A stretch of DNA of 64,000 nt, taken from contig JASGJH010000001.1 in assembly GCA_047601445.1 (NCBI GenBank), positions 1,728,001 through 1,792,000 on the forward strand. Reading direction: 5' to 3'. Below are positions 2,094 through 7,541 of this stretch, one piece after another (position 1 is the stretch's first letter; the number at the start of each line of letters is the position of its first letter). The position numbers and the translations under genes were made by a program. The notes beneath the pieces were generated by a model that ran no database searches, was not told where the DNA came from, and was given only the letters and a program-made list of their open reading frames with translations. The stretch is from Myxococcales bacterium. Its GTDB lineage: Bacteria; Myxococcota_A; Polyangia; Polyangiales; DASUME01.

Positions 2094-2711
2094 GTGATCG
2101 CCACGACTAGCGAGATCAGCGACGAGCGTTTGCGGCTTATCGAGGCCGTGTCCAAGCACTGCGACCTGCGCGAGCGACTCGCCTTGGTCCCGCCTTCCGC
2201 CAAGGTCCGCGGGCTCTACTTCGGCAGCATCGAGGCCGTGCTTGGGCGCGCGGGTAAGGCACAGAAATACAAGGGGCTTTTCCCTGAGCGGTTCGCCGCA
2301 GTGAGTTGGCATCCGGCGGGCGAGTTCCTGACGCGCCTCGCGGTGGGGGGAGCACTCCTCATGTCTCCCGAGCGTGTGCACGAAGGCATGTACGAGATCG
2401 GCCGGCGCAACGCCGCGGCGTTCACCGAGAGCTTGCTCGGACGTACGTTGCTCCGCTTCCTCTCGCGCGACCCGAAGAAGCTCTTGCAGCAGGCCAACGC
2501 CGGACGGCGCCAAAGCACCAATTTCGCGCGCTGGGATATCAGCTTTCCCGACCAGCACACAGCGATCGTCGAGATGGCGGAAGAGTACCAGTGGATTGAA
2601 TCGAACGCGCTCGGCGCCGCCGTCGGTACCTTCGAGGCAGTAGGAATTCCCATGAAAGCCGAGGTTGAGCTGACCAGCCGCTTTGTGGGGCGTCACATCC
2701 TGCGCTGGTAG
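2094..2711 (+). CDS. DUF2378 / TIGR02265-type myxobacterial protein
   Basis: VRGLYF ... IGRRNAAAFTESLLGR pattern and about 200 aa length typical of the family. Confidence 0.7.
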   Translation: MIATTSEISDERLRLIEAVSKHCDLRERLALVPPSAKVRGLYFGSIEAVLGRAGKAQKYKGLFPERFAAVSWHPAGEFLTRLAVGGALLMSPERVHEGMYEIGRRNAAAFTESLLGRTLLRFLSRDPKKLLQQANAGRRQSTNFARWDISFPDQHTAIVEMAEEYQWIESNALGAAVGTFEAVGIPMKAEVELTSRFVGRHILRW

Positions 2712-2875
2712 CGCAAGCTTGTTATCGTCAAATGCAAGGGTTATTGCGCTTTTGGTCGGGAAGAATTGCACGTTTGAAAACGTACGCCCCCCTCCCGCGG
2801 CTGGTTCGGCATCAACGCTTACAGTCCCAGTAAGGTAACATCCCGAAGTGGGGTGTAGTGTGGGCAATTCGGCGC

Positions 2876-2892
2876 TCGGCATCGAACGTGCT
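2876..2892 (+). promoter_or_regulatory. Candidate sigma54 (-24/-12) promoter of the ThDP/KAS III operon
   Basis: tcGGCAtcgaacgTGCT has exact GG-N10-GC spacing, about 60 nt upstream of ATG 2950. Confidence 0.4.
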
Positions 2893-2949
2893 TAGCGCCG
2901 AAACCGCAGGCGTCTGCCCCCCGGCGAGAGGCCTGCGTGAGGAAGTTCC

Positions 2950-4767: not shown

Positions 4768-4774
4768 GAAGACC

Positions 4775-5854
4775 ATGAAAGTTGCATCGGTCACAGGGCT
4801 CGGCACTTGGCTGCCCGAGGCGATTCGCACCAACGACGCTTGGCCTGAAAGCTTCGCCAAGCGCGATCACGTGAAGGGGGATCGCACCTTCAACGATATT
4901 CCCGCCTCTCTCGATCCCCGAGGTGCCGCACTGGTCGAGCACGAGCTCGCGCGCGAAGCGAGCGACCCGTTTCTGGGAGCGAAGCTGAGGCACGTGGCCG
5001 ACGCTGAGACCTCGACGCTCGACGGCGAGACCATCGCGGCACAGCGCGCGCTCGAGGACGCCGCAGTCGACCCGAAAGACGTTGATCTCGTGCTCACGTT
5101 TTCAGCCGTCCCAGATCGCATTTCGCCGCCGAGCGCGGGCGGAATTGCCGATCGTCTGGGGGCGCACAATGCGCGTGGCATCGGCATGGATGCGGCCTGC
5201 GCCAGCGGAGTCGTCCAGCTCGAGATGGCTCGCGCGTTCATCGGCACCGGCATGGCCAAGGTGGTCCTGCTCGTACACTCGCACCTGATGCTGCGCGCCA
5301 TGCCCATGACGCACCCGGCCAGCCCAGGTCTCGGTGACGCCGCAAGCGCCATTGTCGTCACCGCCGGCGAGTCCGGCCTCGTCCTGCGCAGCACCTACGT
5401 GCGCACCCACGGCGAGTACAGGCAGGCCGTGTGCTGGGTCCGAGGTGTCGACGACGATACCGACATTCCGTGGTGGAAAGCCGGCGGCGAATTTCGCCCC
5501 GGGAGCCGCCAGCCAGAGGCCGTCAAAGCCCTGATGCGAGACACGGTGAGCTACGGGTCGGCCACGCTGCGTGAAGCGGCCCACGCCATCGGCACCGACC
5601 TGGAGCGCGTCTCGGTCCTCGCCTGCGTGCAGCCTCGCGGGTTCCTGCCGGGCGCCATCGCGGAGCACGCCGGTCTTCGGCGCGAGTGCGCCGTGACCAC
5701 CTACGAACGCATCGCTCACGTGGGCTCGTGCGGTCCGGTGTTCAACCTACTCGAGAGTCGACGCCAGGGCCGACTCAACAGGGGCGACCTGGTTGGGCTG
5801 TACGGACAAGGCGCCGGCTTCACACGCGCCGCAGCCCTGCTCGAAATGGTCTAA
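4775..5854 (+). CDS. 3-oxoacyl-ACP synthase III (FabH-like) homologue with non-canonical triad
   Basis: GLGTWLPE, DAACAS (catalytic Cys), GDAASA and GQGAGFT; ATG 7 nt after the upstream stop. Confidence 0.88.
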   Translation: MKVASVTGLGTWLPEAIRTNDAWPESFAKRDHVKGDRTFNDIPASLDPRGAALVEHELAREASDPFLGAKLRHVADAETSTLDGETIAAQRALEDAAVDPKDVDLVLTFSAVPDRISPPSAGGIADRLGAHNARGIGMDAACASGVVQLEMARAFIGTGMAKVVLLVHSHLMLRAMPMTHPASPGLGDAASAIVVTAGESGLVLRSTYVRTHGEYRQAVCWVRGVDDDTDIPWWKAGGEFRPGSRQPEAVKALMRDTVSYGSATLREAAHAIGTDLERVSVLACVQPRGFLPGAIAEHAGLRRECAVTTYERIAHVGSCGPVFNLLESRRQGRLNRGDLVGLYGQGAGFTRAAALLEMV

Positions 5855-5897
5855 AAAAAACTTTGGACTACGCGCCGCGGCCGTAGACACTCCCCTG

Positions 5898-7541
5898 ATG
5901 GGAGCGAATCGGACACTCGTGCTGGTGAGGAGCGAAGAGGCTCTCCAGATCCTGCTCGGAATGGTCGAACAGCTGCCTGGGGTGCGCGGTCGCGCCTTCG
6001 AGTTCGACATCCTGCGGGGTGAACCCAGCCAGGCCATGTCCGAGCGCCGCGAGCAAGAGGGGAACATCCCCATCGGCGTGATCGCCGAGGATGAGCCGAC
6101 CGCCTTGGCAGCTCTGTCCGGGGGCGCCGACGAGGCCCTCGTGCTGCCCGAGCTCAGCACGGCGAGCGTGGTGACCTTTATCGATCGCACCGAATTTCGC
6201 GCGGGCCTGCGGGTCGAAACCCATCGCCTGCACGAGCGCTTCGCGCACACCGAGAAGCTGACCGCCCTGGGCACCTTGGTCGCAGGCGTCGGCCACGAAA
6301 TCAACAACCCACTCTCCGCCGTGCTCCTGCTACTCGAGGCTGGACGCCGTGAAATCCTGCCCGCGATGCAAACGGCCTGGGAAGTGGTGCGCTTGCTCGA
6401 GCAGGGAGAGCGCGTACCCGAGTCTCTCGTGCGAAGCCTGAGCGCGCGCCTGAAGCCAACACGAGATGGCGTCGAGCCCACGCGCATTTTCGACGAGATT
6501 GGCTCCGCCTCCGACGCCATCGCCGGCATCGTGCGCGACCTGCGCGTCTTCGCGCGCACGGACGAGGAAGAGGCGCTCGAACTCGTCACCGTGCCCGACC
6601 TGATGGATCACACCATTCGGCTACTCGGCCGCGATCTTTTCAAGCGTTGCCTGATCGAGCGCGACTACGCATCCAACCTGCCCAGCCTGGTGATTCCCCG
6701 CAATCGGGTGACGCAGGTGCTCATGAACGTGCTCGTGAACGCGACCCATGCCATCAGCGAAGTCGAGCGCCCGATGCACCGCGTGAGCATCAGCGCGCGT
6801 GCCGACGAGGAGTTCGTAGCCATCGCCATCAGCGACACGGGGGTGGGCATCCCGCCCAAGTCCCTCGAGCGCATCTTCGACCCATTCTTCACGACCAAAC
6901 GCAAGGAGATGGGCACGGGTCTCGGGCTCTCCATCTCGCGTTCCATCGTACGGAGGCTAGGCGGCGAGTTGTCCGTCGAATCCGTATACGGAGAGGGCGC
7001 GACGTTCATTTGCTTCTTGCCCATCCCCACGCGCGACATGCTGCGGAGCGCCTTCAAGCGCACCGTCATCAGGGCTCGCGACACCTCCGCTTCATCCAGC
7101 ATGCGCGTCCTCGTGGTCGAGGATGACGTGCAGCTCCTGCGCTCCTATGCACGACTCCTGGGCGCGAGCCACCGCATGATCGTCGCCCACGATGGCCGCG
7201 AAGCCGTGGATCTGCTCGAGTCCGGCTCTGGGGCGGACATCGCGCTGTTGGAGCTCGACTTACTCGACATCGGAGACGGCTCGCTGCTCGACTGGCTGCA
7301 GACCCATCGACCGGAGCTCGCGCGCCGCACGGTGCTGGTGACCTCCATGGGATCCGCGCCCGAGCATGCAGAGCTCCTGCACCAGTACCCGGGCAAAGTG
7401 CTGCACAAGCCGATGCGGGGCGAGATCGTGCTCGAGACCATTGCGCGCCTCGCGAACCCGAGCCAGCCGCCCCCGGTACGAGAACGGTCGCCGACTGGCG
7501 AGGAGCGCGTCGCCGAAGAGCGCGTCGCCGAGGAACGCTGA
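5898..7541 (+). CDS. Cytoplasmic hybrid sensor histidine kinase (degenerate REC-HisKA-HATPase-REC)
   Basis: H-box GHEINNPL, N-box NVLVNA, DTGVGI, FDPFFTTK, GTGLGL and C-terminal VLVVEDD. Confidence 0.92.
   Translation: MGANRTLVLVRSEEALQILLGMVEQLPGVRGRAFEFDILRGEPSQAMSERREQEGNIPIGVIAEDEPTALAALSGGADEALVLPELSTASVVTFIDRTEFRAGLRVETHRLHERFAHTEKLTALGTLVAGVGHEINNPLSAVLLLLEAGRREILPAMQTAWEVVRLLEQGERVPESLVRSLSARLKPTRDGVEPTRIFDEIGSASDAIAGIVRDLRVFARTDEEEALELVTVPDLMDHTIRLLGRDLFKRCLIERDYASNLPSLVIPRNRVTQVLMNVLVNATHAISEVERPMHRVSISARADEEFVAIAISDTGVGIPPKSLERIFDPFFTTKRKEMGTGLGLSISRSIVRRLGGELSVESVYGEGATFICFLPIPTRDMLRSAFKRTVIRARDTSASSSMRVLVVEDDVQLLRSYARLLGASHRMIVAHDGREAVDLLESGSGADIALLELDLLDIGDGSLLDWLQTHRPELARRTVLVTSMGSAPEHAELLHQYPGKVLHKPMRGEIVLETIARLANPSQPPPVRERSPTGEERVAEERVAEER
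7500..7538 (+). repeat. 15-bp tandem repeat (about 2.6 copies) encoding EERVA EERVA EER
   Basis: gaggagcgcgtcgcc gaagagcgcgtcgcc gaggaacgc. Confidence 0.85.

Follow-up and report, generated by a model that had tools for sequence, protein, structure and literature searches.

The locus described here recalls two kinds of known gene neighbourhood. In Shewanella oneidensis and Vibrio cholerae, a stand-alone H-NOX-fold protein is encoded beside a histidine kinase, and such H-NOX proteins bind the neighbouring kinase and, once they carry a ligand, inhibit its autophosphorylation (PMC8738867). In the pathways to cyanobacterin, nostoclide and maculalactone, and in a putative deoxyenhygrolide pair, a thiamine diphosphate (ThDP)-dependent carboligase, CybE, is encoded next to CybF, an enzyme of the ketoacyl synthase (KAS) III fold whose first step is the O-acylation of an acyloin (PMC12395478). 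A cassette of four genes with features of both was found in a stretch of 64,000 nucleotides (the window) from the Myxococcales bacterium assembly GCA_047601445.1. It encodes a protein of the DUF2378 family, a ThDP enzyme, a KAS III-fold enzyme and a hybrid histidine kinase.

The cassette is real, conserved and apparently undescribed; no description of it was found in the literature searched, where most subscription papers were beyond reach. With a probability of about 0.55 it is read as a synthase-sensor-kinase signalling cassette, through which a small molecule is both made and sensed. The ThDP enzyme and the KAS III-fold enzyme would build an acylated acyloin, the DUF2378 protein, a predicted haem-free protein of the H-NOX fold, would bind this product, and the liganded DUF2378 protein would switch the neighbouring sensor-less kinase. 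A preliminary description of this DNA had proposed a synthase-receptor, quorum-sensing-like module built around a CybE/CybF pair. The synthase-receptor part of this idea is strengthened by the predicted ligand-sensor fold of DUF2378, by the conserved linkage and by the distance of the ThDP enzyme from IlvB; a role like quorum sensing is putative, and the assignment to CybE/CybF has been given up.

Gene order and conservation of the cassette

The source genome is one contig (C1) of 9.5 Mb and 66% GC, of which the window covers C1:1,728,001-1,792,000. All four genes lie on the forward strand: a soluble DUF2378/TIGR02265 protein of 205 amino acids with a GTG start (window 2094-2711), a 605-residue carboligase with TPP_enzyme N, M and C domains, resembling the CsmA/BbmA alpha-hydroxy-beta-keto acid or acyloin synthases (2950-4767), a KAS III-fold enzyme of 359 residues with ACP_syn_III and ACP_syn_III_C domains, predicted to be an acyltransferase (4775-5854), and a soluble hybrid histidine kinase of 547 residues with HisKA, HATPase_c and a weak receiver domain (5898-7541). 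The common orientation and the gaps of 7 nt between the two enzyme genes and 43 nt between the KAS and kinase genes agree with the preliminary description, from which the 238-nt gap between the DUF2378 and ThDP genes was absent. Because of this gap, DUF2378 may have its own transcript. The reported lack of ilv and fab genes nearby was also borne out, as a Pfam scan of 40 proteins from the window gave no ilv, fab, acyl carrier protein (ACP) or ligase gene; the FabH-like genes of the genome are at 1.01, 3.26 and 5.06 Mb. An acyl-CoA ligase, already noted as not adjacent, has its closest candidate about 55 kb downstream (window about 62,766-63,785), one of 33 AMP-binding matches in the genome. 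The upstream genes for a GNAT protein (376-927) and a glyoxalase (1013-1720) were rejected as cassette members, having no tblastn match in 36 loci.

In an initial search, 18 of 61 related genomes and 18 of 401 from the whole phylum had KAS homologs. All four genes were on one contig in 14 of the 36 loci fetched and divided over two contigs in one more. Profiles were built from the fetched loci and then run on 301 genomes of the order, giving 56 raw matches for KAS and 63 for DUF2378; these tallies include a genome flagged as unpublished (G478), which is left out of the linkage counts. DUF2378 was found within 6 kb of 44 of the 55 KAS matches, and KAS beside 44 of the 62 DUF2378 matches. In held-out genomes, which had not been used for the profiles, the corresponding counts were 29/35 and 29/44. 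The ThDP gene and the kinase were present in every one of the 22 held-out linked loci that were fetched out of these 29, three of the kinases being shorter variants, one lying in two frames and one being truncated where the contig ends. With a profile of the N-terminal part of the kinase, 42 matches were obtained, 39 of them within 6 kb of DUF2378 (12/14 outside the profile set). Since relatives are not independent these linkage counts are descriptive only; chance neighbourhood was rejected, the association of KAS with DUF2378 being far above chance.

The survey of gene neighbourhoods in Myxococcota, suggested earlier as a check, showed that DUF2378 and the kinase stay linked to the enzymes in other genomes, even where the gene order has changed. 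The orders seen number at least eight, among them ThDP-KAS-DUF2378-kinase (L196), divergent DUF2378-kinase and ThDP-KAS pairs (L058) and a convergent DUF2378 gene (L202), and the flanking genes vary between loci. The pairwise identities of the four genes correlate with Spearman coefficients of 0.83-0.88 over 30 cassettes, with identities down to 20-30%. On metagenome contigs all four genes were found in 5 of 12 loci, most of the other loci being short. One genome, G058, carries two cassettes. Two loci depart from the usual composition: L228:1441-5822 reads DUF2378-ThDP-citryl-CoA-lyase-like gene-kinase, and L229:2633-6329 reads DUF2378-ThDP-kinase with a P450 gene nearby and no KAS found.

The cassette divides along one seam, into DUF2378-kinase pairs without enzymes and ThDP-KAS pairs without DUF2378. 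The enzyme-free pairs, found at eight loci (L153, L154, L156, L164, L220, L221, L224 and L225), may by analogy be likened to solo receptors. One of them is in the source genome (L164, C1:1,216,822-1,219,119), its proteins being 56% and 53% identical to those of the cassette. This pair adjoins a MarR-type regulator and a polyprenyl-synthase-like gene, as do the pairs of genomes G004 and G007 (L153, L154); because of this common neighbourhood it was apparently inherited within the genus, as the cassette of the window apparently was not. Tailoring genes (P450, O-methyltransferase, halogenase) occur at related ThDP-KAS or KAS loci that lack DUF2378 (L035, L039, L059, L066), so the enzyme superfamily also occurs in ordinary biosynthetic clusters.

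The proposed sensor protein, the kinase and their control

The product of the first gene matches PF09536 (DUF2378) with an E value of 1.5e-10 and exceeds the cut-off of TIGR02265. Its homologs are named from Myxococcota and Polyangiaceae, and the family has been called myxobacteria-specific, with no known function (PMC9257966). In the literature searched DUF2378 was met in a single study (a paper and its preprint), as a gene of unknown function induced by 2-heptyl-4-quinolone (HHQ). The sequence found no match in the PDB at an E value of 10. An AlphaFold2 model made from 102 sequences (pLDDT 93.9) gave only H-NOX proteins as top matches in Foldseek (E 1.4e-5), and in a second structural search H-NOX again ranked first, the S. 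oneidensis H-NOX structure 4u99 aligning over 162 residues with a Z score of 15.6 and an rmsd (root mean square deviation) of 2.6. VirS, TRAPP subunits and the phenol sensors PoxR and DmpR followed (Z 8-10). Residues 38-205 are predicted from this model to adopt the H-NOX/V4R fold. The protein differs from H-NOX, with which it shares 8-17% identity, in its 37-residue extension ahead of the aligned core, in its linkage to a two-enzyme synthase and in the haem site. With the proximal helix placed by the aligned range, His is found in at most 7 of the 41 DUF2378 rows at any one position of residues 125-146, and YxSxR, the H-NOX haem motif, occurs anywhere in the sequence in only 2 of 41. DUF2378 is accordingly modelled as a predicted haem-free relative of the nitric oxide sensor. 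Its invariant residues are Asp24, Arg28, Arg39, Gly40, Gly98, Glu164 and Gly199. In this genome the gene of a third DUF2378 protein (53%) immediately precedes that of a hybrid membrane kinase of the 7TM type (L165, C1:3,448,075-3,450,652).

The kinase consists of a degenerate N-terminal half-receiver, a HisKA domain with His133 (window 6294-6296), HATPase_c and a C-terminal receiver, in which the phospho-Asp position is Glu452 (Glu in 29 and Asp in 12 of 41 homologs). His133 and the N, G1, F and G2 boxes are invariant in 41/41 rows, so that by its sequence the protein qualifies as an active histidine kinase. No PAS, GAF, ligand-binding or membrane sensor was found in it, the top hydropathy over 19 residues being 1.2. 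Judged from its domains, the kinase depends on another protein for its input and on an output that is not linked to it. In one group of loci a receiver-sigma-54 activator gene lies between the DUF2378 and ThDP genes on the opposite strand (L031:11422-12951, with similar spacing in L032 and L234), a candidate output regulator.

Sister ThDP-KAS pairs have other partners for which the same fold is predicted. In other families of the same bacterial class, the gene downstream of the enzyme pair encodes a hybrid kinase to whose N-terminus a domain of 185 residues is fused. No Pfam family was found for this domain, its ESM Atlas leads were all under 0.9, and no profile similarity to DUF2378 was detected (probability 0.1). 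Its model (pLDDT 93.9) matches H-NOX (Z 13.3) and VirS (Z 11.7). Around the fused domain 18 loci were fetched, with both enzymes in 11, one enzyme in 4 and neither in 3. A further ThDP-KAS pair without DUF2378 (L057) faces a divergent XylR_N/V4R sigma-54 activator; such a neighbour was absent at four other solo pairs checked. These models suggest that the H-NOX fold was recruited independently beside ThDP-KAS pairs, and the fused sister kinase gives the best indirect indication that a domain of this fold serves as kinase input and has to do with the product of the enzymes. The source genome also encodes a kinase of the fused type, with a sister domain (L191, C1:6,013,144-6,013,680, E 1.7e-23) ahead of PAS, HisKA, HATPase and receiver domains and no KAS within 1.5 kb.

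A cue other than the product may be what the sensor pair detects. DUF2378 and the kinase would then respond to a metabolite, to redox state or to a foreign molecule and have the enzymes switched on via a sigma-54 activator, while the product would be an effector (an antibiotic, lipid or developmental compound) and not the ligand. Such cluster-situated regulation is judged rather unlikely, although several observations are in its favor. A candidate sigma-54 promoter of the ThDP-KAS-kinase genes, a -24/-12-like site with GG-N10-GC spacing, was found on the forward strand at 2877-2892, with the ThDP start 57 nt downstream, and 15 of its 16 bases recur upstream of the ThDP gene of L021. Scored against the -24/-12 consensus, sites of at least 6/8 occur upstream of 10 of 60 ThDP genes, against 1.9 expected from base shuffles, and upstream of 1/55 DUF2378, 0/42 kinase and 2/63 KAS genes. 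Since the site in the window scores 5 and several of the ten sites are kin, the site is a lead only. A sigma-70 scan gave no promoter, terminators were at chance level, and no shared enhancer motif was seen in an alignment of intergenic DNA from 10 loci. Several short direct repeats precede the candidate site upstream of the L021 ThDP gene (L021:3290-3420) and are absent from the window. The persistence of DUF2378-kinase pairs without enzymes and the finding that HHQ, a quinolone of the prey, induces one DUF2378 gene in two myxobacteria (PMC9257966) also suit a sensor of other cues. However, three unrelated V4R/H-NOX-fold inputs stand beside the same enzyme pair, the kinase gene usually follows KAS in the same direction, and none of the neighbours scanned proved to be a conserved gene for tailoring, export or resistance. 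The reading of the cassette as one in which the product itself is sensed is preferred.

It is doubtful that the enzymes serve the sensor in another way, by making a prosthetic group for the empty haem pocket, or an acyl group carried on a DUF2378 cysteine, with light, redox or a gas being sensed. The four proteins are all predicted to be soluble with no exporter linked, the KAS looks like an acyltransferase, and a cysteine, Cys23, is conserved in 35 of 41 DUF2378 proteins. There is also a precedent in the pyp operons, which carry chromophore-synthesis genes (PMC12826048); in photoactive yellow protein the chromophore is supplied by TAL and pCL. Cys23, however, lies outside the H-NOX-aligned core of residues 38-205 and is kept also in DUF2378 proteins without linked enzymes, and enzyme pairs occur without DUF2378.

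The two enzymes and their likely product

The ThDP enzyme has three TPP domains, the catalytic Glu87 and an intact GDG...N ThDP-binding motif, marks by which it can be assigned to the wide family of ThDP-dependent carboligases. Its closest solved relatives are CsmA and BbmA (PDB 8x3z, 8x3x), with 238 and 225 bits and with shared motifs; acetohydroxyacid synthase (AHAS) I follows with 207 bits. CsmA and BbmA have been called CybE homologs and make alpha-hydroxy-beta-keto acids (PMC12395478). Their scores are only modestly above that of AHAS I, and their substrates cannot be transferred to the window enzyme. None of the NCBIfam models shown, those for IlvB, ScyA and ScyA-related among them, gave the enzyme a score above cut-off. 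On TIGR00118 (IlvB) it reaches 259 bits against a cut-off of 538, while the true IlvB of the genome (C1:9,042,695-9,044,347) reaches 755. Its identity as IlvB was rejected on these scores. Comparisons with CybE/CybF were made via database scores and proxies, which are loci combining lyase, ligase, ThDP and KAS genes. ScyA or CybE-type membership was also rejected: on NF035927 and NF035923 the enzyme scores 183 and 190 bits (cut-offs 1000 and 1020), while two proxy ThDP enzymes from furanolide clusters score 1001 and 994 on NF035927, and its identity to proxies from CybE/CybF-type loci is about 24-30%. The trees came from quick IQ-TREE runs (LG+G4) with 62 of 118 KAS rows and 57 of 103 ThDP rows, and the grouping tests used 29 and 27 rows, respectively. 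In the free tree of 57 rows, the ThDP enzyme belongs to its own supported clade, apart from IlvB and CybE-type enzymes. Forced grouping gave P values in the approximately unbiased test (p-AU) of 0.126 with IlvB and 0.206 with CybE-type enzymes; neither grouping was rejected, in a tree with long branches. A stand-alone ThDP enzyme with BbmA-like motifs and no adjoining KAS is also present in the genome (L237, C1:6,741,218-6,743,089; TIGR00118 378 bits, under the cut-off).

Compared with FabH structures, the KAS III-fold enzyme keeps the catalytic Cys142 (5198-5200) and has Val285 and His315 in place of the His and Asn. Cys is found in 39/39 and His315 in 38/39 close homologs, and position 285 is Val, Thr, Ile, Pro or Ala, never His. 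FabH identity was rejected on these residues and on a TIGR00747 (FabH) score of 91 bits against a cut-off of 292; forced grouping with FabH-like enzymes gave p-AU 0.09. The enzyme shares Val at the first His and a His at the second site with the ester-forming CerJ, which is grouped with ChlB3 and Pau29 among the KAS III-like acyltransferases; its sequence match to CerJ is weak (E 2.8e-4). In CerJ the Val substitution is consistent with loss of condensation, ester formation is ascribed to a Cys-His-Asp triad, and XclB and XclC are named as ester-forming condensation-like enzymes (PMC4425429; PMC9573744). The Asp of the triad (His+5 in ChlB3) is Gly320 in the window enzyme and Gly in 36/39 homologs, next to a conserved Cys319 (34/39); an Asp is absent here by sequence and may come from elsewhere in the fold. 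The enzyme is predicted to be an acyltransferase with a KAS III-fold active site unlisted so far, Cys/Val/His with conserved Ser169-His170, Cys319 and Asn324.

That the locus is one of the CybE/CybF type, making an enhygrolide-like furanolide from cinnamoyl-CoA supplied from elsewhere, with incidental regulators, is improbable. In its favor, the two folds are the same and in the same order, an N-terminal insert is common to both KAS groups, as is an acidic residue three positions ahead of the Cys, and a bare cybE-cybF pair, proposed for deoxyenhygrolide, is found in Plesiocystis (PMC8777810). The sole aromatic amino-acid lyase of the genome lies at 208 kb of the contig, 1.5 Mb from the cassette, and the ThDP grouping with CybE-type enzymes was not rejected. 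Among the four signature enzymes of furanolide clusters are an ammonia lyase and an acyl-CoA ligase (PMC13288894). Both stand beside ThDP and KAS in 7 of 8 cyanobacterial CybF-type loci scanned and neither is in the cassette. In addition to the low NF035927 score of the ThDP enzyme, the KAS is only 23-29% identical to CybF-type proxies, compared with 39% between the Plesiocystis and Tolypothrix CybF proteins (44% for the ThDP enzymes; PMC8777810). The proxies form a clade at SH-aLRT 100 with Cys/Asn/Asn in place of Cys/Val/His, the window enzyme is in a separate clade, and joining the two groups was rejected at the borderline (p-AU 0.044). DUF2378 had no match in any of 80 loci of the CybF-type group fetched for comparison (L073-L152), to which the cassette adds its sensor-kinase pair. 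CybF-type membership was rejected on the proxies tested. The pair resembles CybE/CybF in outline, carboligation followed by acyl transfer, and is not a member of that group, since identities, site residues and clades differ. The fetched CybE/CybF-type pairs are widespread beyond cyanobacteria, in Polyangium, other Myxococcota, Acidobacteriota and one Lentzea record; CybF is not mentioned in PMC11331486. The view that the pair belongs to primary metabolism, as an extra acetohydroxyacid synthase and an extra FabH whose two-component neighbour is unrelated, for which the IlvB and FabH models are the top NCBIfam matches and ThDP grouping with IlvB was not rejected, was dismissed as very improbable, because both enzymes are far under the cut-offs, a true IlvB and a Cys-His-Asn FabH are found elsewhere in the genome, the KAS has no decarboxylating His and the linkage to the sensor pair is conserved.

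For the product of the proposed signalling cassette, an O-acylated acyloin is likelier than a furanolide because of the CerJ-like acyltransferase pattern of the KAS. Xenocyloins, in whose biosynthesis XclB and XclC take part, start from a ThDP acyloin synthase. The O-acyl acyloin is given somewhat under an even chance, a butenolide or furanone formed after ring closure is possible and less likely, a C-acylated product by analogy with CqsB1/NzsJ (PMC7466098) is unlikely, and any other product would be more unlikely still.

The rest of the window holds a DUF1592/DUF1552 (PSD/HXXSHH) gene pair with an unassigned 513-residue protein (8458-13181), the PSD gene being apparently split over two frames (11874-13181 and 11531-12253). 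Three tectonin-domain proteins (23658-24749, 34815-36029 and 38260-39960) are encoded near AraC- and LuxR-type regulators, and a 1619-residue protein (28588-33444) has SdiA-regulated, lamin-tail and ephrin-receptor-like repeat domains.

Weight of the signalling reading and related systems

Several points weigh against a cassette that makes and senses its own signal. The acyl donor and a cognate regulator are not encoded in it, and a receiver-sigma-54 activator inside the cassette is confined to one small group (that of L031); the sigma-54 site of the window, at 5/8, is under the count threshold of 6. Linkage is incomplete, with 11 of 55 KAS matches lacking DUF2378 (2 at contig ends) and 18 of 62 DUF2378 matches lacking KAS, and G004 has the cassette halves on different contigs. 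The second enzyme is variable, citryl-CoA-lyase-like in L228 and not found in L229. Any block of genes that is inherited together is expected to co-diverge, and related loci are not independent. Sensors encoded next to biosynthetic genes can answer an unrelated cue, and the product, ligand binding, DUF2378-kinase contact and signalling are all predictions from sequences and models. The observations that bear on a quorum-sensing circuit are the linkage and the candidate sigma-54 promoter, and the one that bears on regulation of the kinase by DUF2378 is their genomic linkage.

A wider proposal is put forward tentatively, that a new class of cell-to-cell signalling is widespread in uncultured myxobacteria, with acylated acyloin or butenolide signals, paralogous channels, eavesdropping solo receptors and haem-free H-NOX-fold receptors recruited at least twice, as free DUF2378 with a kinase and as the fused domain on a hybrid kinase. 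If true, this would give DUF2378 its first function and show the fold of a nitric oxide sensor as an autoinducer receptor. What groups of H-NOX proteins without a haem ligand sense has been raised as an open question (PMC8738867), for which the cassette offers a case. A 2021 paper states that no acyl-homoserine lactone signal had been seen from myxobacteria and names A-signal as quorum-like (PMC7862692). Myxobacteria rely on coordinated group behaviour, and in this cassette a candidate for a dedicated, diffusible signal is at hand that can be tested directly.

Among systems with comparable chemistry, the carbazole enzymes NzsH/NzsJ and CqsB3/CqsB1, compared by description and not by sequence, differ in performing decarboxylative C-acylation and in needing an ACP and a carbazole synthase, neither of which is linked to the cassette. 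Nostoclide, a furanolide, has been described as a density-dependent mediator without autoinduction (PMC9324945). In its organization, the cassette would resemble LuxI/LuxR, with a minimal synthase linked to a receptor and with both solo receptors and solo synthases. Synthase-receptor signalling pairs are already known, CqsA/CqsS, PpyS/PluR and DarABC/PauR among them. The cassette differs from these pairs in having no known autoinducer synthase or receptor domain, and its chemistry and its class of receptor would both be new.

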